Source: Candidatus Omnitrophota bacterium (GTDB lineage Bacteria > Omnitrophota > Gorgyraeia > Gygaellales > Profunditerraquicolaceae). Taken from it: DNA of 64,000 bases. The position numbers were made by a program, and so were the translations under genes. The stretch covers positions 10,104 through 74,103 of the forward strand of contig JAUSED010000010.1 of NCBI GenBank assembly GCA_030650425.1, in the 5' to 3' direction. Below the pieces are notes generated by a model. The model searched no databases and was not told the origin of the DNA. It saw only the letters and a program-made list of their open reading frames with translations. How positions within the stretch are numbered: position 1 is the first letter of the stretch; every line of letters begins with the position of its first letter. Positions 21,840 through 64,000 of this stretch are shown piece by piece.

Positions 21840-21997
21840 TCTTTCTCTCTATTTCGTAATTATCCCGATAAAAAACCGCCACCCTGCATTTGCATGCAAA
21901 AAGAAAAATTCAACAAATCAATAAGATGATTCCGCAACAGGCCTCCGACTATTACCTTAGCCTTAACCATAGAATCCCTTCATAGCATCTGACTTAT

Positions 21998-23692
21998 TTA
22001 TAAATAAGCCTTTAAGACATATTCCTGGACCAATCTCTGGGTATTAAAAAATGAAGCGTTCAACGCTATCGTATGGCGCATAATTTCAAGCCATTTATCT
22101 TTCTCTTTGTAAAACGTAGGGATAATTACCTTTTCTAATTTCTGATACAAATCATGAGCATCTTGAGCGCTATCCGCATTCTGTTTTTGTACCGAGCCGA
22201 TTGCCCAGCCGGTTACATTTTCAATACAACCCTCTATCCACCAACCATCAAGAACGCTTAAATTCGGCACACCGTTAAGGCATGCCTTCATACCGCTCGT
22301 GCCAGAGGCCTCTCGTGGAGGAAGAGGGTTATTCAGCCAAAGGTCAACGCCGCCGGTAATTAACCTCCCCTGTGTCATATCATAATTCTCAAGATAGGCA
22401 ATTTTGATTTCTGGGTTTAGCTCTTTAATTTTTGAAAATATCTTTTTTATCAGCTCTTTACCACCGCCATCCTTAGGATGCGCCTTTCCCGCATAAACGA
22501 TTTGCATCTTGCCTGTTTTATCATTAATCTCGACTAACCGATTTATATCAGTTAATAAAAGGTTTGCTCTTTTATAAGCTGTGACGCGCCGGGCAAAACC
22601 GATAGTAAAGGTATCGTGTTCCAACCCAATGCCTGTACGGGCATTTACATAATCAATGAGTTCTTTTTTTGCCTCAAAGTGCGCCTGAAATATTTCCTCT
22701 TTAGGAATACTCAAGGCGTAACGCAAGGAAAAATAATCTGATTGCCAGCCGGGGATATATTTATCGTAAAGCTTTTTGAATGCGGGGGCTGCCCAAGTCA
22801 ATAAATGAATCCCGTTGGTAATAGAATCTATGGAATAACCGGGGAACATCTCTCGTGTCACTTCGCCATGCTTCTTGGCTACTCCGTTTATATATTTACT
22901 TAGATTCAAAGCAATCCACGTCATATTTATTTCATTATCCCGGATAAATATATCAGGCATTTCAAAAGACAAGTTGCTGCGCAGGGCTCTTTTTACAAGA
23001 TCAAGAGGAAACCGGTCATGTCCGGCGGCTACGGGCGTATGGGTAGTAAATATGCATTTATTTCTTACTGAATCAAGGTCATATTTCTTATAAATATCCT
23101 CCTCACTATCTTTTTTTGTCCTCTCTAATAATTCCAACGCTAAGAGACTGGCATGGCCTTCGTTCATATGGTATTTTTCAATGTTTTGATAACCAATAGC
23201 TTCGATTGCCCTCACGCCGCCTATGCCAAGGATTATTTCCTGACAAAGGCGGTACCACTGGTCACCTCCGTAAAGGAAACTAGTGAGGGTACGGTCGTAT
23301 TCGGAGTTTTCCTGTAAATTAGTATCCAGAAAATAAACAGGCACGGTGGCCCCTGTAATCCCCTGCACTATATATTTCCAAATTTTTATTCTTACCTCTC
23401 TTCCTTCAATATTTACGCTTACTTGTACCGGCAAAAGCTTCACAAATTCCTCTTTTGGCCAATCCACGGGAAATTCTGATTGACTGCCTTCTGCGTCAAA
23501 TTTTTGCCTAAAATAGCCTTTTTCATTAAGCAATGTTACTGCGATAATCGGCACACCTAAATCCGCGCATGATTTTATAGTATCTCCTGCCAGGACCCCT
23601 AATCCGCCGCTATAGGTGGGCATTTCAGGGTCAAGGCCTATCTCCATAGTAAAATAAGCGATCCCTCTTTTCCCTAGAGCCTGTTTGTTCAT
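21998..23692 (-). CDS. glgP: Alpha-glucan (glycogen/maltodextrin) phosphorylase, short GT35 form
   Basis: EIGLDPEMPTYSGGLGVLAGD at the N-terminus and the PLP-lysine motif EASGTSGMKACLNG. Confidence 0.85.
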   Translation of the reverse strand: MNKQALGKRGIAYFTMEIGLDPEMPTYSGGLGVLAGDTIKSCADLGVPIIAVTLLNEKGYFRQKFDAEGSQSEFPVDWPKEEFVKLLPVQVSVNIEGREVRIKIWKYIVQGITGATVPVYFLDTNLQENSEYDRTLTSFLYGGDQWYRLCQEIILGIGGVRAIEAIGYQNIEKYHMNEGHASLLALELLERTKKDSEEDIYKKYDLDSVRNKCIFTTHTPVAAGHDRFPLDLVKRALRSNLSFEMPDIFIRDNEINMTWIALNLSKYINGVAKKHGEVTREMFPGYSIDSITNGIHLLTWAAPAFKKLYDKYIPGWQSDYFSLRYALSIPKEEIFQAHFEAKKELIDYVNARTGIGLEHDTFTIGFARRVTAYKRANLLLTDINRLVEINDKTGKMQIVYAGKAHPKDGGGKELIKKIFSKIKELNPEIKIAYLENYDMTQGRLITGGVDLWLNNPLPPREASGTSGMKACLNGVPNLSVLDGWWIEGCIENVTGWAIGSVQKQNADSAQDAHDLYQKLEKVIIPTFYKEKDKWLEIMRHTIALNASFFNTQRLVQEYVLKAYL

Positions 23693-23707
23693 AGTGGTTT
23701 TCCCGTA

Positions 23708-24379
23708 TTATTGCGCCTTCACCTTGCTTATTTTTGAAGGTAATATGACAATTTCAACCCTGCGGTTTTTCTGCATATTCTCCTTTGTGTCATTGGCTGC
23801 AACCGACCGGAATTCCCCATAGCCGTTAGCAGAAAGCCTGGTTGGCCTTACTTCACACTCATTAATTAAATAATGCAAGACCGCAAGCGCCCGCGCCGAT
23901 GAAAGCTCCCAGTTCGTTTTCCAGCCTGAATATTTTATCGGCTGATTATCAGTGTGGCCCTCAATGGCGACATTTGAATTGGGTACATCCCGGTTTAAAA
24001 CTTCAGCAACTCTTCGAATTGAATCTTTTCCGTCTTCCCGGACCATATCTTTACCGGAATCAAAAAATACTTCGGACAGAAAAGTAATCACAAGCCCGCG
24101 CTCGGTCATCTCCAGCTTGGCTTTATAGTCTCCAATCTCCTTCTTCAAGGCATCCTCTAGCTCAAGTTTTGCTTTTTCAAGCTCAGAAAGCTCTCTTTCC
24201 TTCTGTTTGACAACATTATCAACTTCTTTTGTTTTCTCTTTCTGAAGCTGCGTAATGCGCGCCCGTAAATTCTGGTTCTCAACCTCCAAATCATCAGTCC
24301 TTTTGGCTTTTTGAATATAAGTGCACCCTGACGTGGTAAATATTACTAAAAGCATAAAAGCCGTAAATTTAATCCTCAT
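23708..24379 (-). CDS. OmpA-family lipoprotein with coiled-coil
   Basis: Lipobox TTSGC. Coiled-coil QLQKEKTKEV.... OmpA_C: GHTDNQPI...WELSSARALAV...NRRVEIV. Confidence 0.8.
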   Translation of the reverse strand: MRIKFTAFMLLVIFTTSGCTYIQKAKRTDDLEVENQNLRARITQLQKEKTKEVDNVVKQKERELSELEKAKLELEDALKKEIGDYKAKLEMTERGLVITFLSEVFFDSGKDMVREDGKDSIRRVAEVLNRDVPNSNVAIEGHTDNQPIKYSGWKTNWELSSARALAVLHYLINECEVRPTRLSANGYGEFRSVAANDTKENMQKNRRVEIVILPSKISKVKAQ

Positions 24380-24489
24380 GGATAATCCTCCTTTTATTTT
24401 ATCTTTTCAAAATACTTATAAACATGCAACGATACTTTCGCGATAAATTCCTTGGAAGGCACGCTGTTTGAATTCGCACTTTCATTTTT

Positions 24490-24900
24490 TTATCGAGGTA
24501 AGTATTCGTTTAATTCCGCCGACGTCCGTTTGCCGACTATCCCATCTGCTTTAAGGCCGTTTGCTTTCTGAAATTTTCTAATCGCTTCTTTTGTCTTAGG
24601 CCCGATCTTACCGTCAATAGGCCCTTGATAGAAACCAGCGCTCTTTAAAGCCCGTTGAATCTGCTTCAGGCTTAATTCTACTCTTGATCCAGTATAAGTT
24701 TTCTTAGCCGATTTTTCATAGCTACCGGCCGACCATGTATCATTAGCACCATAACCCTCAGAATACGATTCCTGCTGATATACTTTCTGAGATTTCTCAG
24801 TTACCTTCGGCTGCGATTGCGCTGCTTGCTTCTTAGAACCTGTGGCACACCCAGCCAAGGTAAAAGCGAAAAAAACAAACAAAATTATTCTTGTACACAT
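24490..24900 (-). CDS. Lipoprotein with peptidoglycan-binding (PG_binding_1) domain
   Basis: Lipobox LAGC. LKQIQRALKSAGFYQGPIDGKIGPKTKEAIRKFQKANGLKADGIVG. Confidence 0.7.
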   Translation of the reverse strand: MCTRIILFVFFAFTLAGCATGSKKQAAQSQPKVTEKSQKVYQQESYSEGYGANDTWSAGSYEKSAKKTYTGSRVELSLKQIQRALKSAGFYQGPIDGKIGPKTKEAIRKFQKANGLKADGIVGKRTSAELNEYLPR

Positions 24901-25030
24901 AGTTTCTCCTCCTGTTTAATATATGAATTAATCCTTTTCTGCCAACCCGGAAGCCATTTTTGCTCATTACGGACTGAAGGAAAACTTTGCGCGTAATCTT
25001 TAAGTATAGCATTTACTGACCGGTATTAAC

Positions 25031-25351
25031 TTAGAATGTAATCTTTTCATTCTTTAAAATAGGAGTTACCGGTTTGGCGTCTATACGCAGACCGCCGTCA
25101 TGCTCGATCTTTATAGTATAGCTCATACCGGGGATGAATTTTGTGCCGGGCGCTTCAATCTGGACGTTCTTAATGTCTGCCTTGCTTGCTTTCTTAGGAT
25201 TAAACGCGTATTCCCAAAAATTCTTCCAAAGCTTTTTCTCAAAAGCGTTCTTAACAGCCGCTACTTTATAACCAAAGGGTATTTCATTTATTCTAGTAAT
25301 CTCGAAAGATTCAACGCCCTTATTAGTCAGCATAAATGCCTTCATAAACAA
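25031..25351 (-). CDS. Hypothetical protein. A signal-peptide-like segment lies upstream in another frame.
   Basis: No recognisable domain. A 26-aa ORF MKFKIFKLYIAIAVTVILVYEGIYAD overlaps the start out of frame. Confidence 0.35.
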   Translation of the reverse strand: MFMKAFMLTNKGVESFEITRINEIPFGYKVAAVKNAFEKKLWKNFWEYAFNPKKASKADIKNVQIEAPGTKFIPGMSYTIKIEHDGGLRIDAKPVTPILKNEKITF

Positions 25352-25430
25352 GAATAACTGTTACCGCAATGGCTATATATAATTTGAATATTTTAAATTT
25401 CATGGTTTTTTGGTTTCCGCTATAATAATT

Positions 25431-26483
25431 TCAATCTTTACTTATATACAGCTTCTGCGTAGGATAGGCAAACTCTATGCCCCGTTTTTCAAACTCTTCC
25501 TTAATCGCGAAATTAATCTCCTGCTGGACATCCATATATTTGTTGTAATCGGGAGTTAAAACAAAATACACGACCTCAAAGATGAGGCTAAAATCCCCAT
25601 AACTAAAAAAGTGTGCGCGGTCAAAAGCCGTGTCTTTGGTATTCTTAACGACACGCTCGATGATCTTGGGAATTTCCTTTAATTGGCTAAGAGAAGTCTG
25701 ATAAGTAACGCCTATACGAAATAAAATACGCCTTTTCTCCATAAGCCTATAATTACGAACCCGGGAGTCTGTAAGGTCGGTGTTAGAGAATATTACCTGT
25801 TCGCCGCCCAAGCTGCGTATGCGCGTGGTTTTTATCCCTATATACTCAACGGTACCCATGAAATCACCGATGATTATAAAATCCCCTATTTTGAAGGGAT
25901 GGTCAAAGACTATAGAAAAATAGCTGAAGAAATCTTTCAGGAGCGCCTGCGCGGCTATTGCTACTGCAATACCGCCGATTCCTAATCCGGCAATTAACGT
26001 AGAGACTTTATAACCAAGGTTATCTAATAGAATTATAACCGCCAAGGCCCAAATCAAAAATTTAACGGCCCATAACATACCATCAAGGCTGCGCACCACC
26101 GTGGGATCCTGCTGCTTTTTGGTAAGATATGTATTAATCCCCCAACCGGCAAGCATAACCACTATGCGCGCGGCAAAAAAAGTGATAATAATCATCTCAA
26201 AAGTGTTGATCAAAGCGCCGGCTGCGGAAGGTAATTTTAATGTTTTGGCGCTCACATAAAAACAACTGATGTATAATGCCGGCAGGCCGATCTTTGACAG
26301 AATTGATACTAAAAAATTATCGAATCTTGTAGTAGTTCTTTCCGCTATTTTTTTAAGACGCCTTATAAAGAAGAGGATAACCACTTTAACAAACAACAGG
26401 GTTAAGAATAACGTTACTAAAGCGATAATATAATCCAAAATACGGTTGCCAAAAAATACCTGCTCTAAAATTTTTAGATCCAT
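25431..26483 (-). CDS. Mechanosensitive ion channel, MscS family
   Basis: Three N-terminal TM helices and an MscS beta domain (GTVEYIGIKTTRIRSLGGEQVIFSNTDL). Confidence 0.85.
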   Translation of the reverse strand: MDLKILEQVFFGNRILDYIIALVTLFLTLLFVKVVILFFIRRLKKIAERTTTRFDNFLVSILSKIGLPALYISCFYVSAKTLKLPSAAGALINTFEMIIITFFAARIVVMLAGWGINTYLTKKQQDPTVVRSLDGMLWAVKFLIWALAVIILLDNLGYKVSTLIAGLGIGGIAVAIAAQALLKDFFSYFSIVFDHPFKIGDFIIIGDFMGTVEYIGIKTTRIRSLGGEQVIFSNTDLTDSRVRNYRLMEKRRILFRIGVTYQTSLSQLKEIPKIIERVVKNTKDTAFDRAHFFSYGDFSLIFEVVYFVLTPDYNKYMDVQQEINFAIKEEFEKRGIEFAYPTQKLYISKD

Positions 26484-26497
26484 TTTAACTCCTCATA

Positions 26498-26580
26498 AAA
26501 AAGCCATCCCGCATTCTAATGCAAGATGGCGGCCCGACCATCGATAATCCTCCAGAGATATTTAAATATCTCTGAACCAC
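26498..26580 (-). promoter_or_regulatory. Candidate cis-regulatory structured RNA (riboswitch/attenuator-like) in the mscS leader
   Basis: Minus sense: hairpin CAGAGATATTTAAATATCTCTG; conserved hairpin GATGG-UCGGGCCG-CCAUC; alternative terminator GCCAUC...GAUGGC plus U6 directly before RBS GAGGAG. Paralogous copy at 29893-29970 with a compensatory hairpin. Confidence 0.5.
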
Positions 26581-26653
26581 TTATTTATCCGTTGTTCTAT
26601 TTTAAAATACTATAGCACATGTAACATCAAATACAATAATTTTATATCCCCGG

Positions 26654-27781
26654 CTAAATTTTACTCTCGACTGAAAAACTGCTAAGAAGTTTACAAAGAT
26701 TATCTTTAAATATGTTATTTTTAATAAATTTATTAGCAATCGCGCTTGCCCTCATTGAGAGCTTCTTTCTTAAAGCATGATTTCTTATCAAAACTCCGTA
26801 TTTTTCGGAAAAATCTCCGACATTTGCATCGAAAAATAATGCGGCGTCCTTAAACTTCTCCAAAACCGGAAGCTGGTTTAAAAGCAAGGCGTTATTACAG
26901 AGCGCGCTTTCATGGGTACTCAAAGAAAACGACTCGCTTAAAGAGCTGTTAATATAAATATCACTTAAATAGTAATACTGGAATAACTCTTTTTTATCCA
27001 AAAATTTTTTATAAAAGAACTGCTCGGGGTATAGCCTGCACAGGCTTAATAATTTTTTATACAGATCTTTCTCCAGCGACCTCCCCACAAAAAAGATTTT
27101 AAGATGGCGATGCTCCCTGAGGATCTTTGGCGCCTCTTTAAGCAAGATGTGGGCTCCTTTTATCCTCTCAAGCCTGCCTACATAAAGCGAAACTATATCA
27201 TTATTCTTAATCTTATGCTTATTCCTTATCTCTTCTATCTTATTTTTTTCTGCGCTAAAGGCTTCAATAGTATTCTCAATAACGACCACTTTATCTATAA
27301 AAGAGGGGAAATACCTGATAAAATTATCGTATTCATAGGTAGAAGGACAAACAATCCTATCTGCCAATTCAATCATCTTTTCCTGATTGCATAAAAAGTG
27401 ATTTAGCGTTCTGAATCCGGAATCTTTCTCCCTTCTTAATATGCTGTGAAAGTGGTATATGATTTTAGGTTTTCTCCTCTTTTGTATTGCAATCTTTTTA
27501 AGCTCTTTAGTCCAATTCACAAAATGATGGATTATATAGCCAAAATTACACCAGTCATAATCCCTTAGGAATGCTCCCAGGCTAGGGTAGCGCTTTATGG
27601 AATCATCCGGAAGCAACAACTTAACCGGATCTTTCCTGGCAAACCCGGAGCTTATAAGGACGTAAGTCTCATAACCTATAGCTAAAAGGGCATCCCTGCT
27701 TTGCTCTACGATCTGACCCACGCCGCCGCAGTATGACTTTCCGGTGGGATATTCAAATGAAATAAGAAGTACTTTCTTCAC
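26654..27781 (-). CDS. Glycosyltransferase family 4 (GT-B, group 1)
   Basis: C-terminal GT1 fold with ERIKGAHILL. E..E-like motif region. Confidence 0.65.
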   Translation of the reverse strand: MKKVLLISFEYPTGKSYCGGVGQIVEQSRDALLAIGYETYVLISSGFARKDPVKLLLPDDSIKRYPSLGAFLRDYDWCNFGYIIHHFVNWTKELKKIAIQKRRKPKIIYHFHSILRREKDSGFRTLNHFLCNQEKMIELADRIVCPSTYEYDNFIRYFPSFIDKVVVIENTIEAFSAEKNKIEEIRNKHKIKNNDIVSLYVGRLERIKGAHILLKEAPKILREHRHLKIFFVGRSLEKDLYKKLLSLCRLYPEQFFYKKFLDKKELFQYYYLSDIYINSSLSESFSLSTHESALCNNALLLNQLPVLEKFKDAALFFDANVGDFSEKYGVLIRNHALRKKLSMRASAIANKFIKNNIFKDNLCKLLSSFSVESKI

Positions 27782-27909
27782 GATAAAACCTCCTAAAGAA
27801 TAAAAAGCGCTGACAAAAAAATTTATTTTTCCCTGGAATAAAAGGAGAGATAAACAACGAAGATTGCAGAAAAAAATGCCTTTACAATGCCATTACGCAG
27901 GGTTTCCCT

Positions 27910-28869
27910 TTATTTATCCAGCGACTTCAGATATTTATAATAATCGCTGTCGGTAGTCAGGATTACCGTTGAATTTGCGTCAATAGTGCCCCTATACGTT
28001 TCCAGCGTCTTAAGAAAAGAATAAAATTCGGGATTCTGCTCATAAGAGGTAGCGTAAATATTAATTGCTTCGGCGTCGGCTTTACCGACAATAGACTGCG
28101 CTTGCTTGTAAGCCTCTGAAGTTATTAACTTAAGTTCTTTACCGATCTGGCCCTCTATTTCGGCCGCTTTCCCAAACCCCTCCGAGCGGTATTTTTCAGC
28201 GGCGCGTTTTCTCTCCGCAATCATCCTGTCGTAAACTTTATTTCGGACCTCTTCCACATAATTTATGCGTTTGATACGCACATCCAGAATCTCAATCCCG
28301 TATTGGGGAGCAAGCACTTTTGCCTTTTCCAGTATAGAGCGAGTCAACTTCTGCCTTCCCATTTCTATACGTTCAAGCGCCTCTTCGCTGACTATGGCAT
28401 CTTCCCCTAAATCCTTACTCTCAAGTATGCGGTTAGAATCCCTTACCGCCTCAACCAGAAGATTACCGGTAACAGCATCCCTGGTAGCTGAATTAATAAT
28501 ATCGTTTAGCCTGCTGCTTGCGCTTGTTTCATTACCCACAGACTGTAGGAATTTCAAGGCATCCACTATTTTCCAGCGCGCCGTGGTATCTACCCAGATA
28601 TATTTCTTGTCTTTTGTGGGTATTTGGTTCGGATCGCCGTCCCATTCCAAGAGCCTCTTCTCAAAATAATGCGCCTCTTGTATCAAGGGAATTTTAAAAT
28701 GCAAGCCAGCGGAAGTTATGGGTTCTCCGACTGGTTTACCGAACTGGGTAATCACTACTTGTTTTGTTTCATCAACTATAAATAACGCCCCGCTGGCAAA
28801 GGCAAGCAAAACAATTACAGCCGGGAAAATAATTAACCCCAAAATAGTCCCTAATCTGCCCTCTTTCAT
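27910..28869 (-). CDS. hflC: Protease modulator HflC (SPFH/band 7)
   Basis: N-terminal TM, then FIVDETKQVVITQFGKPVGE. Overlaps the hflK stop. Confidence 0.85.
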   Translation of the reverse strand: MKEGRLGTILGLIIFPAVIVLLAFASGALFIVDETKQVVITQFGKPVGEPITSAGLHFKIPLIQEAHYFEKRLLEWDGDPNQIPTKDKKYIWVDTTARWKIVDALKFLQSVGNETSASSRLNDIINSATRDAVTGNLLVEAVRDSNRILESKDLGEDAIVSEEALERIEMGRQKLTRSILEKAKVLAPQYGIEILDVRIKRINYVEEVRNKVYDRMIAERKRAAEKYRSEGFGKAAEIEGQIGKELKLITSEAYKQAQSIVGKADAEAINIYATSYEQNPEFYSFLKTLETYRGTIDANSTVILTTDSDYYKYLKSLDK

Positions 28870-29861
28870 TGCTGCGGCCCTCCTTTCTTGCCTATATCCA
28901 ATAACGGCAATATGGAAGATTGCCTTGGGTCAATAATATATTTTTCTTTCACCTTGGGCAAGACCTCGGCAAGGGCTTCAAGATAGAGCCTCTTACGGGT
29001 AATCTCCGGGGCTTTCTTATATTCTCCCAGGGTCACTAAAAACCTTTCCGACTCGCCCTTGGCCCTGTTTATCTTATCCAGGGAATATCCCTCTGCTTCG
29101 CGGATAGTCCGCTCCGCTTCTCCTTTGGCCTTTGGTATGGCCTTATTATATGCCTCCCAGGCCTGATTGATCATCTTCTCTTTTTCCTGTTTTGCCTCAT
29201 TAACTTCGTTAAAAGCCGGCTTTACCTTATCCGGAGGATTTACATCCAGCAGTTTCACCGTAATGACCTGCACGCCGGTCTGATAATCATCTAGAATCCT
29301 CTGCATTTCAACTTGAGCTAAGTGGTCTACTTCTTCCCTTTTAATAGTCAACACCTCATCCACGGTGTAATCTCCCACCAGCCGGCGCATGACTATTTCA
29401 GAGACATCCCTTATAACATTAACCGGGTTACGCACGACAAAAAGGAGCTTAATGGGGTCTTTTATTTTAAATTGCACAATCCAGCGAACGTCGAGTATGT
29501 TTAAATCTCCGGTAAGCATTAACGACTGTTCTAAATTCGAGCCGTAAGAACGCGTACTCACTAAACCCGAGCTCCCTCCCCCAAACTCTTCCTTGAATAT
29601 TTTTTCTACTTTTATCGGCGTTACCTTATCAATGCCAAAGGGAATCTTAACGTGCAAGCCGGGTGAACTTAATTCTGTATATTTACCGAACCTCTGCATG
29701 ACCCCTACTTCATCCGGGCCTATTGAATAGATTACCCCTCTTAGACCTATAATAATAAGCAGGCCAAATATTATCCAGGGGATATACTTGCCATAATCGG
29801 ATAATTTCTTTTTGCCTACATCGATTATATCGTCCGGGCTAGGAACATTTTGCCAGTCCAT
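28866..29861 (-). CDS. hflK: Protease modulator HflK (SPFH/band 7)
   Basis: GPDEVGVMQRFGKYTE...VKLLDVNPPDKVKPAFNEVNEAKQEKEKMINQA. Confidence 0.85.
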   Translation of the reverse strand: MDWQNVPSPDDIIDVGKKKLSDYGKYIPWIIFGLLIIIGLRGVIYSIGPDEVGVMQRFGKYTELSSPGLHVKIPFGIDKVTPIKVEKIFKEEFGGGSSGLVSTRSYGSNLEQSLMLTGDLNILDVRWIVQFKIKDPIKLLFVVRNPVNVIRDVSEIVMRRLVGDYTVDEVLTIKREEVDHLAQVEMQRILDDYQTGVQVITVKLLDVNPPDKVKPAFNEVNEAKQEKEKMINQAWEAYNKAIPKAKGEAERTIREAEGYSLDKINRAKGESERFLVTLGEYKKAPEITRKRLYLEALAEVLPKVKEKYIIDPRQSSILPLLDIGKKGGPQQ

Positions 29862-29892
29862 AATAAACTCCTTTCTTTAACTTAAAGCCTCT

Positions 29893-29970
29893 AAAAAAAC
29901 AAAACCACCAACTGCAATTTCGCAGATGGCGGCCCGACCATCTAAACCTTCAGGAAATCTTCCTGAACCC
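29893..29970 (-). promoter_or_regulatory. Second copy of the candidate cis-regulatory RNA, in the hflK leader
   Basis: Same GATGGTCGGGCCGCCATC hairpin. The variable hairpin TTCAGGAAATCTTCCTGAA has different sequence but keeps pairing. The alternative terminator CCAtCTGC...GCAGtTGG plus a U-rich run precedes RBS AAGGAG. Confidence 0.5.
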
Positions 29971-30084
29971 GTTTCTTTAAAATATCAACTGCCCTTAGTT
30001 TACTATTATTACGCTTCTTGTCAAGCCTAATCGTAAATCGTAAATCACTTTTAATACCAAGTTAAGGCAACCTCGCAAAGATGG

Positions 30085-30185
30085 ACAGTAATATTGCACA
30101 AGGGGACGACCTCTCTGCACACAACCATTGGCAAATTTGAGAGGTGAACCTCGTAAGGACGCCCAGAAATACGCAGCGACAGAAA
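30085..30185 (-). repeat. Full-length GGGCGTCCTTACGAGG..ACCTCTC..GAGAGGTCGTCCCC element, upstream in the hflK leader
   Basis: Contains both halves that occur separately at 15730-15800 and 19265-19340. Predicted nested stems ACCUCUC/GAGAGGU and GGGCG/CGUCC. Confidence 0.5.
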
Positions 30186-31679: not shown

Positions 31680-32213
31680 TCAATCTCTGTGGAATCCAAT
31701 TGGAGGCTTCTGCGGCAAAAGAGGCGCGGGTGCCGGCTCAAGCAGCTTTTTAATCGCTTCGAAAATAAGCTGGATCTTATCATCATGTGTAGCGTATTTC
31801 TTCTCGAGCGCGGCGATCTTTTCCGCCAAGTCCTTGTGAGTCAAAAGGAACTCTTTTAATTTCACGAAGGCGCGCATAATCATAATATTAACCTGGATAG
31901 CGCGCTCGCTGTTCAGAACGCTAGAGAGCATAGCCACTCCCTGCTCGGTAAAGACATAAGGAAGTTGATGGGAAAAACGCAGCCCGCTTAGGTGGTCACA
32001 AATTGTGACCAGCTCCTCTTTTTCCTCTTTCCTGAGCTGAAACATGAAATCCGATGGAAATCGTTTTATATTTCTCTTTACTGCTTGATTCAACCGCTTA
32101 GTAGCAACACCATATAACTTAGCCAAATCAATATCTATCATTACCTTCTTACCTCTGAGATCTAATATTCTTGCGGCTATTAGCTCAACCGATATAATCA
32201 TAGACATACCCAC
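31680..32213 (-). CDS. ORF6N (KilA-N-like) domain protein
   Basis: LRGKKVMIDIDLAKLYGVATKRLNQAVKRNIKRFPSDFMFQLRKEE is the canonical ORF6N N-terminal region. Confidence 0.65.
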   Translation of the reverse strand: MGMSMIISVELIAARILDLRGKKVMIDIDLAKLYGVATKRLNQAVKRNIKRFPSDFMFQLRKEEKEELVTICDHLSGLRFSHQLPYVFTEQGVAMLSSVLNSERAIQVNIMIMRAFVKLKEFLLTHKDLAEKIAALEKKYATHDDKIQLIFEAIKKLLEPAPAPLLPQKPPIGFHRD

Positions 32214-32514: not shown

Positions 32515-32904
32515 TTATTTTGAGTGGACATGGAAGCCAACTACCCTTGTTTGCTTAGGCGGTTCAAGCAGCCTTTTAATCGCTTCAAACACTACAGCGA
32601 ATTGACCGTCATATTTATTTTCCATATCTTCAATTTTACGCTTTAATACAGCATAGGTCAACCCTATCCTTCGTAAAGCTACAAAAGCCCTCATTATCTG
32701 AATATTAACCTGTATTGCCTGTTTGCTATTTAGCACGCTCGAAAGCATTGCTACGCCCTCCTGCGTAAAAGCAAACACATTAGGCGCATGTTTAATCTTG
32801 GAACTTATCACAATTTGTGATAAGTTCATGATCTCCCTCCTAGTAAGTGAAAACATAAAATCTTCTGGAAAACGGTCGATATTTCTTCTAACCGCCTGGT
32901 TCAC
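32515..32904 (-). CDS. N-terminally truncated ORF6N-domain paralog (GTG start directly after a TATAAT box)
   Basis: Begins within the ORF6N core (NQAVRRNIDRFPEDFMFSLTRRE). C-terminal half aligns with 31680..32213. Confidence 0.5.
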   Translation of the reverse strand: MNQAVRRNIDRFPEDFMFSLTRREIMNLSQIVISSKIKHAPNVFAFTQEGVAMLSSVLNSKQAIQVNIQIMRAFVALRRIGLTYAVLKRKIEDMENKYDGQFAVVFEAIKRLLEPPKQTRVVGFHVHSK

Positions 32905-32959: not shown

Positions 32960-33000
32960 CTTCTCAACTACGAGTAGTTAGATACAACGTTACGGTTTCT
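32960..33000 (-). repeat. Conserved post-stop motif, copy 2, abutting the stop of 33000..34208
   Basis: ttaagaaaccgtaacgttgtatctaactactcgtagttgagaag (minus sense). Confidence 0.6.
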
Positions 33001-34208
33001 TAATTTACGGCTCCATGCGCCTTTAGTAAAGAAATTATATCCTCTGGATATTTAGGAAAAGCGGCTTTTAGCTCCTCTAAAAATACTAATACGGTTTTCC
33101 CTTGATTATCTCTGGCATTTATATCTGCACCAGCAGAAAGAAGTAATTCGACGATTTCAACCTTTGGTGGCAACAATATCGATGCCTGCATTAATACTGT
33201 ACCGCCATAACTATTCCTCTGATTAACATTCGCACCTTTTTTAATCAATAATTCTATCATTTCCTTATCTTGATTCGCTACCGCACATCTTAAAGGTGCA
33301 TTTCCTCCATTGCTTATTGAATTAACGTCTGCTCCCTTTTCAATTAATAACTCTGCTATTTTCTTATTCCCTTTGCCATAATTAATCAAAGCAATCAAAG
33401 GAGTATTCCCTAAACTATCCCTTGCATTAACATCTGCACCATTTGCAATTAATAACTCAGCAATCTCCTCTTCTACAGGTTTATCGAAATTGAAAAATGC
33501 CTCATGCAATGGCGTAACTCCATTGGAACTTGAGTCTTTTAAGGAAGGATTAGCGCCATGCATTAGTAATAATTTCACCATTTCTTTATGCGCAAATTCT
33601 ACTGCCAAACATAGGGGTGTACCGGAACCATCAACTTTGTTTACATCTGCGCCATCCGCAATATCACGAGCAACCCTTTCCACATCTCCCTTAACTAACG
33701 CATCGAATGGAAGCACCTTTACTACAGCCACAGAGTTTCCATACGCCCGCTGAAGTTTTTCTGCTTCACCTTCTACAACGTACATTTGGTTTACTTTTTT
33801 AGCACTAATATCAGGATAGTTCTTTTGCCCCGAATCAAATTCTAGCACTTCAATAAAATAAGGGTCGGCTTTAAACCCTATATTTTCAGCTTGATGCACA
33901 TCTGCCCATGCTTTGCCATATTCTTTCGTCTCGTAATAGGAAACGCCGCGGTTGTAATAGGCATCTGCATAGTTAGGATTAATTGCGATAGCTTTGTTAT
34001 ACTCAGAGATGGCCTGAGTAAAATTCTTTTGCTTATAATAGGCAATCCCGCGATCAACATATTCTTTCGCTGTCTCAGCATAAACAGAAGAAACACTTAA
34101 AAATAATACTCCCATTAAAATAAATATAATTACTTTGGAACTCTTGGACATCATCTCCTCCTCCTTAAAAAGATTATTAAGATAGTAACTACCGCTTTGC
34201 ATACTCAA
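33000..34208 (-). CDS. Secreted TPR plus ankyrin-repeat protein
   Basis: TPR: YYKQKNFTQAISEYNKAIAINPNYADAYYNRGVSYYE. At least 5 ankyrin repeats with G-TPLH/A...G...V..LL..GA. Confidence 0.8.
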   Translation of the reverse strand: MSMQSGSYYLNNLFKEEEMMSKSSKVIIFILMGVLFLSVSSVYAETAKEYVDRGIAYYKQKNFTQAISEYNKAIAINPNYADAYYNRGVSYYETKEYGKAWADVHQAENIGFKADPYFIEVLEFDSGQKNYPDISAKKVNQMYVVEGEAEKLQRAYGNSVAVVKVLPFDALVKGDVERVARDIADGADVNKVDGSGTPLCLAVEFAHKEMVKLLLMHGANPSLKDSSSNGVTPLHEAFFNFDKPVEEEIAELLIANGADVNARDSLGNTPLIALINYGKGNKKIAELLIEKGADVNSISNGGNAPLRCAVANQDKEMIELLIKKGANVNQRNSYGGTVLMQASILLPPKVEIVELLLSAGADINARDNQGKTVLVFLEELKAAFPKYPEDIISLLKAHGAVN

Positions 34209-61964: not shown

Positions 61965-62474
61965 AAAATTTTTGTGCAACAAAAATTTTGGTACTTGGCG
62001 ATACCAAAAATCTTTTACCTAGGTTTGAGCCAAGTACCTCCATCACAAATAACCTCAACAACCACATAACCTCGTATGGTAAAAACTACTCTCAATAAAC
62101 CTTTGAGAATTGATTTTCCTCCACCTCCAGCTCTTTTGCAAGAAGGAGGCTCGGGATAATCTTCTTCGCTTTGCAGCGAAAAAAATTAAAGGCCAAGCCA
62201 ATCGGCTGATTAGTACGCATTAGCTCAAATCCTTACGGACCTTACACATTGCGCCTATCGAGGTCGTAGTCTACGACCAGCCTAATGGGGATACTTATTC
62301 TTGAGGGGGGCTTAGCACTTAGATGCTTTCAGCGCTTATCCCTTCCGAACATAGCTACCCGGCCTTTGCCCTTGGCAGGACAACCGGAACACCAGAGGTT
62401 CGTTTCTCTAGGTCCTCTCGTACTGAAGAGAACTCCTCTTCAAGTATCCTACGCCCACATCAGATAGAGACCGA

Positions 62475-63214
62475 CAATTTTTGTTACATTCGCAAAATTA
62501 TTGCGAAGGATCAATCATTTCTGCTGATCTCTGCATATCGCTATGCAGTTCGGACTGTATCATATCCGCCTGTCATGCGGATTCTGGCGTACAGTCTCTG
62601 AAGATTCCAAGTGAGAAATTATATCTTCCAGTTTTTGCTTGCGATATTTACCGCTAAAATTCATTGAATAAGCGATTGTTAATATCGTAATCAACCCATT
62701 CTTTTTTAAATGCCCTCCTTCTTTCATTAAACTAACGACTCGAGCAAATTTCTCAAAATCCTTTTGTTTGATTGAAATAAGAGGAGATTTTTTGAAGAAT
62801 GGTATGACTTTATTACGGAGATCATCGATATTTCGCACCACATAAACTGAAGTTTGATCCTTTAGATTTTGATAATCATTAGGTTTAATATACCCACAAC
62901 CTAATTTTTTCTTAATCACTTCAAGGACTTCAGTCCTGTCCTGGTGCTGTGAAACATGAAATTCCGGGATTACCTGAATCCCTAGTTTCACATTGCCGCT
63001 TTTTTGAATTGTTACTGAAAAGCAGCCTTCTCCATCAACAAAACCTGAGATATATGATGTTATCCCACCTGGCCTTTCCTGCTGATTGTCTGCACCCATA
63101 TATTTTCACTCCCGACGATATATTATCATATAGAGACTAAATCGTCAAGTAGTAATATGGGATTCTCAGAGTTTCCAGCAATTAGCCAGATTTAAAGACA
63201 GCAACGGTCATTTT
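62475..63214 (-). mobile_element. Group I-type intron in 23S at the I-CreI homing site (E. coli ~2593; GTGAGACAGT^TCGGTC)
   Basis: Exon sequence is contiguous with the E. coli 23S consensus once 62475-63214 is removed. Contains a LAGLIDADG ORF. Confidence 0.7.
62560..63099 (-). CDS. LAGLIDADG homing endonuclease (I-CreI-like), intron-encoded
   Basis: GFVDGEGCF motif. 179 aa. Confidence 0.8.
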   Translation of the reverse strand: MGADNQQERPGGITSYISGFVDGEGCFSVTIQKSGNVKLGIQVIPEFHVSQHQDRTEVLEVIKKKLGCGYIKPNDYQNLKDQTSVYVVRNIDDLRNKVIPFFKKSPLISIKQKDFEKFARVVSLMKEGGHLKKNGLITILTIAYSMNFSGKYRKQKLEDIISHLESSETVRQNPHDRRI

Positions 63215-63250
<36 letters not shown>

Positions 63251-63285
63251 CTTTTAACTGGCGAACAGCCAGACCCTTGGGACCT

Positions 63286-64000
63286 GCTTCAGCCCCAGGA
63301 TAGGATGAGCCGACATCGTACCTTTATCCATAATTACGTATGGTGTAGACTATATCTTTTCCCTACTGTCGGACTTTAGGCTTTCAGCCATATCCTTTAC
63401 TTTTTGATGTAGGGTTCGGCGTGTTATCTAGCTTCTTTTACAAAAGCTAAATCTCCTCTTTCGAGTCAGTCGTTACGGGGTCATAGTCAATTTTATAACG
63501 GAAACATGGCAACAGATGAGGCGCGACTATATTTCGAAATAGTCCTGCGCTTTCCGTTCGTATTCGAATTCTAAAGTATTGTTTATCGCGATTGAGACTG
63601 GACTTAATACCTAAATCTCGATCTAAAATATTCATCAATATCTTCTGGCTTACCAGATCAAACTGCTGAGTATTTAAATAAAATGTATTGCGACTCTTCG
63701 AACCGTCATCCATAAACCAAACAGAAAGCATCAAATTGGTTAGGATGAGATCGGTCGAAACTGCCTTTTTGCCGCTCGAATAATATTTTAAATAATATTC
63801 TGTAAAAAGCGGAAGGCTTTGAGTCGTAAAACGATAAGCAATACGATTGCCATTGCCATGGCGAGATTTTGGCGGAGTTTTGACAAACTCTTCGAAATTT
63901 TTCCACTTCCAATCAACATATTCTCGATATTGGAACGAGTGGTTAACCTCAAGAAGCGCGTTAGTTCTGGTGCCCTGCTTTCGCAATGCGCCATCACCAA
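63286..64000 (-). mobile_element. Second intron in 23S (near E. coli ~2500 region), continues beyond the window
   Basis: The exon resumes at ...TACGATGTCGGCTCATC (63271-63285). Upstream sequence does not match the 23S consensus and encodes a LAGLIDADG_2 ORF. 5' boundary not in window. Confidence 0.55.
63447..63986 (-). CDS. LAGLIDADG_2-family homing endonuclease, intron-encoded
   Basis: LMLSVWFMDDGS motif (WFMDDG signature of the LAGLIDADG_2 family). 179 aa. Confidence 0.7.
   Translation of the reverse strand: MRKQGTRTNALLEVNHSFQYREYVDWKWKNFEEFVKTPPKSRHGNGNRIAYRFTTQSLPLFTEYYLKYYSSGKKAVSTDLILTNLMLSVWFMDDGSKSRNTFYLNTQQFDLVSQKILMNILDRDLGIKSSLNRDKQYFRIRIRTESAGLFRNIVAPHLLPCFRYKIDYDPVTTDSKEEI

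Follow-up and report, generated by a model that had tools for sequence, protein, structure and literature searches.

The nhaA-I motif was discovered by comparative genomics (Weinberg et al. 2017, PMC5737381), and in 2022 White et al. validated it as the Li+-I riboswitch, an ON switch that binds Li+ with a KD of about 20-30 mM and is located mostly upstream of nhaA (PMC9646797). The same work defined a set of rare nhaA-I variants, the Na+-II riboswitches, that carry intrinsic terminators and respond to Na+; all of them came from Deltaproteobacteria, where hypothetical genes follow them. In single-round transcription assays the Na+-II riboswitch of Desulfobulbus propionicus gives read-through upon addition of Na+, and terminator platforms were seen by the authors only in the Na+-sensing variants (PMC9646797). 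Specificity is set in part by a single nucleotide, which is C54 in D. propionicus and U in most nhaA-I RNAs, and the D. propionicus C54U mutant (M4) responds to Li+ and NH4+ besides Na+; according to the oligonucleotide table of that paper, position 54 directly precedes the CGGGCC loop on its 5' side (PMC9646797). K+, Rb+ and Cs+ are rejected by the validated members of the family (PMC9646797). The published table of nhaA-I-associated genes contains mscS in 3 of 944 cases and leaves HflK and HflC unnamed, with 52 cases pooled as "Other". Another family, Na+-I (the DUF1646 motif; PMC9337991), has two similar hairpins, acts as an ON switch, commonly with a terminator, and has a Na+-related regulon, but differs in sequence from the leaders described here.

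The DNA analysed here (the window) is a 64,000-nucleotide stretch from a Candidatus Omnitrophota bacterium, and it contains two members of the nhaA-I family. A scan of the whole window with Rfam at curated thresholds gave four matches: a 23S rRNA fragment, 5S rRNA, and nhaA-I (RF03057) twice. The nhaA-I matches are both on the minus strand, at 26524-26579 in the leader of an mscS-family gene (copy 1, 47.0 bits) and at 29924-29970 in the leader of hflK (copy 2, 47.3 bits); both span model positions 1-55 of 55, and the gathering score of the family is 37. Our own model R1 scores the two copies at 42.7 and 47.1 bits, respectively. No further copies were found in the window, either at the Rfam gathering level or with model R1 across its whole length, or with Rfam at relaxed E in 21900-30100, and a relaxed search of 26400-30100 turned up no competing Rfam family. 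Membership in Na+-I was considered and rejected, there being no match to the DUF1646 model in 26400-30100 at E <= 10. The preliminary description of these leaders had recognised no known riboswitch class, a statement that the matches to RF03057 overturn, both copies exceeding the curated threshold; the same matches rule out a new class. Its broader proposal, a ligand-responsive terminator/anti-terminator leader with an ion or osmotic signal, is implied by the assignment itself, as the validated members of nhaA-I are alkali-cation ON switches.

Each aptamer consists of two hairpins joined by a short linker. Read 5' to 3', copy 2 begins with GGGU (29967-29970), followed by P1 (29950-29966), AGG (29947-29949), a UUUA linker, and P2 (29925-29942) with its CGGGCC loop. 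Copy 1 is built the same way from UGGU (26576-26579), P1 (26552-26575), AGG (26549-26551), the linker AUUAUC, and P2 (26525-26542). The GGGU-P1-AGG bracket of nhaA-I is present in copy 2, and in copy 1 it shows one deviation, the replacement of the first G by U; the same UGGU start is found in 5 of 141 distinct relatives among the matches listed. The P1 arms are UCAGAGAUAU..AUAUCUCUGG in copy 1 (26552-26575) and UCAGGAA..UUCCUGA in copy 2 (29950-29966). Pairs 5 and 6 have undergone compensatory change between the copies, from A-U and G-C in copy 1 to G-C and A-U in copy 2, with both sides altered, and pair 1 is U.G in copy 1 and U-A in copy 2. The P2 hairpin, GAUGGUCGGGCCGCCAUC, is 18 nt long and the same in both copies. 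The window contains it exactly twice and has no near matches, and 100 shuffles contained no match to it even with up to 3 mismatches permitted. Its invariant GGUCGGGCCGCC core is that of the validated aptamers, and both copies retain every nucleotide at which a published mutation destroyed activity, namely the GG of the AGG linker, altered in mutant M2, and, altered in M3, the CG of the loop.

Both copies are intergenic and co-directional with the next gene, with a promoter-like site on the 5' side and a terminator, an RBS and an ATG on the 3' side; the distance from the end of the aptamer to the start codon on the same strand is 41 nt for mscS and 63 nt for hflK. The terminator of copy 1 (26497-26530, minus) consists of a 12-bp stem, GCCAUCUUGCAU/AUGCGGGAUGGC (26503-26530), and a run of six U residues (26497-26502), and the first 6 nt of the stem are the 3' arm of P2. 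It was the top terminator-like site in a scan of 8.5 kb (12 pairs, 6 of them G-C), and its fold has an energy of -18.9 kcal/mol (z = -3.4). The terminator of copy 2 (29893-29935, minus) has its stem at 29902-29935 and a U-tract reaching to 29893. Its stem re-uses both the loop and the 3' arm of P2 (GGGCCGCCA), continues in an inner helix CUGCG/UGCAG and is followed by UUUUGUUUUUUU; alone, this hairpin folds with -19.3 kcal/mol (z = -4.1).

The minimum-free-energy folds of the full leaders combine P1 with the terminator (-32.7 kcal/mol, z = -4.2, and -28.5 kcal/mol, z = -3.4), energies unmatched by any shuffle, while the aptamer alone, the 5' part of each leader, folds as P1 plus P2 in both copies. 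This difference between the full leader and its 5' part supports mutual exclusion of the two structures. A thermodynamically favoured terminator thus competes with P2 in both leaders, and the Na+-II leader of D. propionicus has the same predicted fold pattern. The three leader elements named in the preliminary description were all found at their places on the minus strand. The hairpin whose pairing had been said to survive sequence change is P1, with pairs 5 and 6 swapped on both sides; the hairpin said to be identical in the two leaders is the exact 18-nt P2; and the overlapping alternative stem with its U-run is the terminator, which takes the 3' arm of P2 as its own 5' arm and in copy 2 includes loop bases there as well. 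One detail needs correcting: the P1 hairpin of copy 2 exists as described, but the sequence quoted for it was the reverse complement, a trivial slip because the hairpin is almost palindromic.

The best sigma-70-type match of the 8.5-kb scan (10/12) lies just 5' of copy 2, at 29997-30024 on the minus strand, and is a consensus match consisting of TTGACA, a 16-nt spacer and TAAACT. In the mscS leader a promoter-like site was read from the sequence at 26609-26636 (minus), with TTGUAU at 26631-26636, a 16-nt spacer and TATAGT at 26609-26614; this site failed the -35 criterion of the scan, and its spacer ends in TG, an extended -10. Transcription is predicted to start about 20 nt 5' of the aptamer in both leaders.

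The gene that follows copy 2 is hflK (28866-29861, minus; 331 aa), which is preceded by the RBS AAGGAG (29868-29873) and overlaps hflC (27910-28869, minus; 319 aa). Both products are Band_7 proteins, and they exceed the cutoffs of the corresponding models comfortably, HflK scoring 275.5 bits against TIGR01933 (cutoff 159.4) and HflC 265.6 bits against TIGR01932 (cutoff 134.4). We infer that the hflK-hflC operon (27910-29861) is under the control of copy 2. Between hflC and the mscS leader is a gene for a group-1 (GT4) glycosyltransferase (26654-27781, minus; 375 aa; Pfam Glycos_transf_1 and Glyco_transf_4). The 8.5-kb scan found no convincing terminator 3' of hflC or 3' of this gene, which may come last in the hflKC transcript. 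Copy 1, in turn, would control the MscS-family mechanosensitive channel gene (25431-26483, minus; 350 aa), whose RBS is GAGGAG (26489-26494). Its product matches Pfam MS_channel_1st, MS_channel_2nd and MS_channel_3rd, each above cutoff, and the NCBIfam MscS models with E = 1e-27, under their equivalog cutoffs.

Relatives of the two aptamers were collected in two ways. A genome collection was scanned for the P2 core with either C or U permitted at position 54, and metagenomes were scanned for the sub-type of the window, with U54 and P1 flanked by GGUYC and GRAGG; each scan gave at least 120 loci, and all counts of relatives given here are samples drawn from the matches listed, with near-exact P2 required. 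The D. propionicus RNA, which has a different P2 stem, falls outside the scan pattern. About two thirds of the listed genome matches are chance occurrences inside GC-rich coding sequence, and every listed genome match with C at position 54 is a P2-only chance match of this kind. A covariance model of our own separates these from full aptamers: 32 of the first 100 listed genome loci are full-length aptamers of at least 35 bits, the rest score no more than 28.5 bits, and the full aptamers, both window copies included, span 35-72 bits. One P2-like 18-mer, GGTGGCCGGGCCGCCATC, recurs by chance in a repeated coding motif of GC-rich genomes (among loci L001-L120), where the sequence on its 5' side (GATGTAGAGGTTGCC...) looks like that of beta-propeller repeat proteins. 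It produces many false matches, so pattern scans for the riboswitch core need the context of P1.

P1 was assigned with a pairing-based parser, which parsed 142 aptamers, 141 of them distinct, among the matches listed. Pairs 5-7 of P1 are free of constraint by either the scan patterns or the parser, and in the listed aptamers they are paired in 94, 92 and 86% of cases, compared to 48, 69 and 46% after shuffling of the 3' arms. In a model-guided alignment of 106 distinct sequences, which is fitted to the model and in which P2 is largely fixed by the search patterns, 97.6% of cells are paired, versus 84.7% in shuffles. The covariation score of the same 106 sequences is 0.482, versus 0.215 in shuffles (0 of 500 reach the observed value) and at most 0.16 in slid-partner controls, and each of the seven P1 pairs varies on both of its sides. 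The search for further covarying copies that had been proposed as a check on the leaders has thus yielded many of them, and P1 covariation is supported. RNAalifold applied to 14 full leaders recovered P1 and P2 and none of the terminators, which were analysed sequence by sequence because they are too divergent in sequence and length for MAFFT. Treated in this way, with a heuristic, a terminator that pairs with the P2 3' arm is found in 70 of 119 distinct sub-type relatives among the matches listed, and its sequence varies by locus.

The labels of the assemblies with relatives include Omnitrophota, Elusimicrobia, Nitrospirae, Verrucomicrobiota and Acidobacteriota. The closest named relative listed is a Candidatus Omnitrophota metagenome assembly (L047), whose HflK is 83% identical to that of the window; other close relatives bear different NCBI labels, which are perhaps unreliable (Nitrospirae for L010, Clostridia for L073). 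Several metagenome contigs carry two nhaA-I aptamers (L125, L128, L170, L186, L205, L219 and L228). Those of L125, L170, L186 and L228 are tandem, about 90-130 nt apart. Elsewhere the two aptamers precede neighbouring genes, as in L128, where one gene codes for a small membrane protein and the other for an SPFH protein. The two copies of the window, 3.4 kb apart, fit this clustering. In the genome collection, locus L116 (36% GC) has a terminator-type nhaA-I riboswitch and a good RBS followed only by a hydrophobic ORF of fewer than 45 aa, which may encode a small membrane peptide under cation control.

The genes that follow these relatives recur in a limited number of families. HflK is downstream at no fewer than nine loci, where seven orthologues are 70-86% identical to the HflK of the window and one gene encodes a distant SPFH-family paralogue (22% identity); among these loci both the P1 sequences and the terminator stems differ. 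Among the papers searched, none linked a riboswitch to hflK. MscS-family genes are downstream at six loci or more, including one 72%-identical orthologue whose aptamer also has the UGGU start, three proteins with 27-30% identity to the MscS of the window, and a sixth (L160) that gave no direct BLASTP match to it. The orthologous hflK and mscS leaders keep the architecture of those in the window while their P1 and terminator sequences have diverged.

The window sub-type as defined here is one in which P1 begins with pyrimidine-C and ends with G-purine, and it takes in both window copies as well as the D. propionicus RNA. Downstream of this sub-type are trehalose-6-phosphate synthase (at least 15 loci), GpgS-like and GT2+HAD enzymes (at least 9), two families of small membrane proteins (at least 11 and at least 7), pentapeptide-repeat proteins (at least 6) and an OmpA/MotB-like lipoprotein (at least 2), together with Na+/H+ exchangers, a TRAP DctQ subunit, a CitMHS transporter, the beta subunit of a Na+-pumping oxaloacetate decarboxylase and a mannosylglycerate-synthase-like protein. 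The functions represented include the synthesis of trehalose and of glucosylglycerate as well as Na+-linked transport. NhaA (PF06965) was found downstream of the sub-type in none of 122 cases among the matches listed. The genome sample, which is unselected by P1 base but small (20 versus 14 loci among the matches listed), divides accordingly: aptamers whose P1 starts with G, the canonical sub-type with G-C pairs at both ends of P1, have NhaA downstream in 5 of 20 cases and no terminators, and those whose P1 starts with a pyrimidine have no NhaA and terminators in 7 of 14. In the metagenome sample, which was selected by P1 base, the 106 pyrimidine-type aptamers among the matches listed have 63 terminators and no NhaA. 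Regulon and type of platform thus seem to go with the base pair at the foot of P1.

Set beside the described classes, the window copies combine features of both. With Li+-I RNAs they have in common the consensus of GGGU, P1, AGG linker and a P2 of 6-7 bp with GGUCGGGCCGCC, as well as a location in the 5' UTR and, as we read them, ON-switch logic. They also share the U of the Li+-I aptamers directly 5' of the loop (GG-U-CGGGCC), which in both copies stands in the context GGUCGGGCC. They differ from Li+-I in the start of P1, which is G-C in the three validated aptamers (GGGU-GC..GC-AGG) and U-A or U.G in the window, a distinction that is our own reading of the validated sequences and not a published criterion. 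The validated Li+-I RNAs, moreover, are believed to work chiefly through the RBS and lie mostly 5' of nhaA, whereas the two copies in the window use intrinsic terminators and are followed by hflKC and mscS, so that the association with nhaA or other cation antiporters that marks Li+-I is absent. Many of these features recur in Na+-II: an intrinsic terminator whose 5' arm is formed by the loop and 3' arm of P2 (PMC9646797, Fig. 5), a pyrimidine-purine pair at the base of P1 (C-G; GGGU-CC..GG-AGG), downstream genes other than nhaA, an AU-rich leader and a promoter close upstream. The D. propionicus RNA has C before the loop (GUUAG-C-CGGGCC, GUUAGCCGGGCC), however, and the U found at this place in both window copies makes them equivalent at position 54 to the M4 mutant. 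Na+-II has been reported in Deltaproteobacteria only, whereas the closest named relative of the window listed is an Omnitrophota assembly.

Taken together, these features make it almost certain that both leaders are cation riboswitches of the nhaA-I family that act by antitermination, a logic proposed because the validated D. propionicus homologue antiterminates. As transcription proceeds from a start about 20 nt upstream, the aptamer would fold in the order GGGU, P1, AGG linker and P2 with its CGGGCC loop. A bound alkali cation would keep P2 and its linker contacts in place, leaving the 3' arm unavailable to the terminator and permitting read-through into hflK-hflC or mscS. Without the cation, the P2 3' arm would pair with downstream sequence into a hairpin of 12-14 bp that, with the U-tract, would stop transcription before the RBS. 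An antitermination ON switch triggered by Na+ or salt is the reading we consider probable. Rather than Li+ alone, the most likely trigger is a rise of cytoplasmic Na+, as when salt or osmolarity increases, and the RNAs may respond to Li+ and NH4+ as well. The ion itself is inferred more weakly than the mode of action, from a regulon related to osmoadaptation and Na+, from the absence of nhaA, and from the continued response of the C54U mutant to Na+. More tentatively, and with the chances a little short of even, the window copies may represent a third, widespread nhaA-I sub-type, with a pyrimidine-purine P1 base, U 5' of CGGGCC and often a terminator, that senses Na+ or salt stress in its own right beyond the Deltaproteobacteria and serves an osmoadaptation regulon to which the FtsH modulators HflK and HflC belong.

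The main argument for a Li+ sensor is the U, typical of most Li+-I RNAs, at the one position that experiments have shown to shift specificity. That these are ordinary Li+-I riboswitches is also in keeping with their membership in RF03057, the family validated as Li+-I, and with a P2 loop that is the same as in the validated aptamers of P. monteilii, R. eutropha and A. caulinodans. In the listed members of the sub-type, however, the place of NhaA is taken by compatible-solute, MscS, HflK and Na+-linked genes, and the terminator platform and the pyrimidine-purine base of P1 are those of Na+-II, so that we regard this alternative as unlikely. Li+ is also rare in the environment, and the breadth of the regulon is therefore hard to explain by Li+ alone.

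The same fold might instead serve another input, such as NH4+, K+, ionic strength or a protein partner, the likeness to nhaA-I being that of a shared scaffold only. The pentapeptide-repeat proteins, the small membrane proteins and a response regulator, none of which has an obvious Na+ link, would suit such a reading, as would the response of the C54U mutant to NH4+ (PMC9646797). We think it improbable: validated members reject K+ along with Rb+ and Cs+ (PMC9646797), the window RNAs do not differ from the cation-binding aptamers in the strictly conserved core, and most of the identifiable regulon belongs to osmotic or Na+ biology. Still further from the data is the idea that the leaders have no regulatory role, being copies of a short repeat or constitutive attenuators with an accidental likeness to a riboswitch. 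Exact 18-nt P2 matches do arise by chance in GC-rich coding DNA, as the listed genome matches illustrate, but the chance matches are confined to P2 and to low scores, whereas both window copies are full aptamers placed in intergenic, co-directional leaders with all the expected signals, and hflK and mscS leaders elsewhere preserve the architecture through divergence of P1 and terminators. This explanation was already disfavoured, and we give it hardly any weight.

For annotation, the result is routine: two Rfam-detectable riboswitches of a known family in new places. What it adds is incremental, and none of it would greatly surprise a specialist. Terminator-type members of nhaA-I are common outside the Deltaproteobacteria, to which the paper that described them had confined them (PMC9646797), and HflK/HflC, unnamed in the published gene table, joins the recurrent targets of the family with at least nine independent loci; the association with mscS was already known, though rare. 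The question raised is whether the P1 base and the C/U position together sort Li+ sensors from Na+ sensors. Should sensing of Na+ prove true, RNAs of this kind would be markers of salt-stress regulons in uncultivated phyla. Should the third sub-type prove true, more than the C/U position alone would determine specificity, and in these bacteria the level of cytoplasmic cations would act directly on membrane-protein quality control by HflKC-FtsH.

Several neighbouring genes deserve mention. On the 3' side of mscS, the minus strand at 23708-25351 encodes a 106-aa ORF with no Pfam match, a 136-aa PG_binding_1 protein and a 223-aa OmpA/MotB-like peptidoglycan-binding lipoprotein (23708-24379; Pfam OmpA), the last co-directional with mscS. 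The 8.5-kb scan placed a promoter-like site at 24918-24945, between mscS and the lipoprotein gene. The lipoprotein is 69% identical to the riboswitch-proximal protein of L010, and the same association is found in L075; in both, the orthologue lies directly 3' of its own terminator-bearing nhaA-I riboswitch. It seems that this lipoprotein has been put under an nhaA-I RNA by differing routes in different genomes. On the other side, 5' of the hflK leader region, the minus strand contains two ORF6N-domain ORFs, at 31680-32213 (177 aa) and 32515-32904 (129 aa, with only the C-terminal part of the domain matched), and at 33000-34208 a gene for a 402-aa protein with TPR and ankyrin repeats.

At least two insertions interrupt the 23S rRNA gene at the window's right end (62199-64000, minus). 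One insertion, of 752 nt near Rfam model position ~2617, contains a 179-aa LAGLIDADG_1 ORF (62560-63099; E = 5e-25) and, at 62531-62662, a weak match to a group I intron (25.9 bits; gathering score 50). The other, from about 63330 up, contains a 179-aa LAGLIDADG_2 ORF (63447-63986; E = 1e-30) and a weak group I match at 63327-63452 (19 bits). These are probably two group I introns with homing endonucleases in a bacterial 23S gene.
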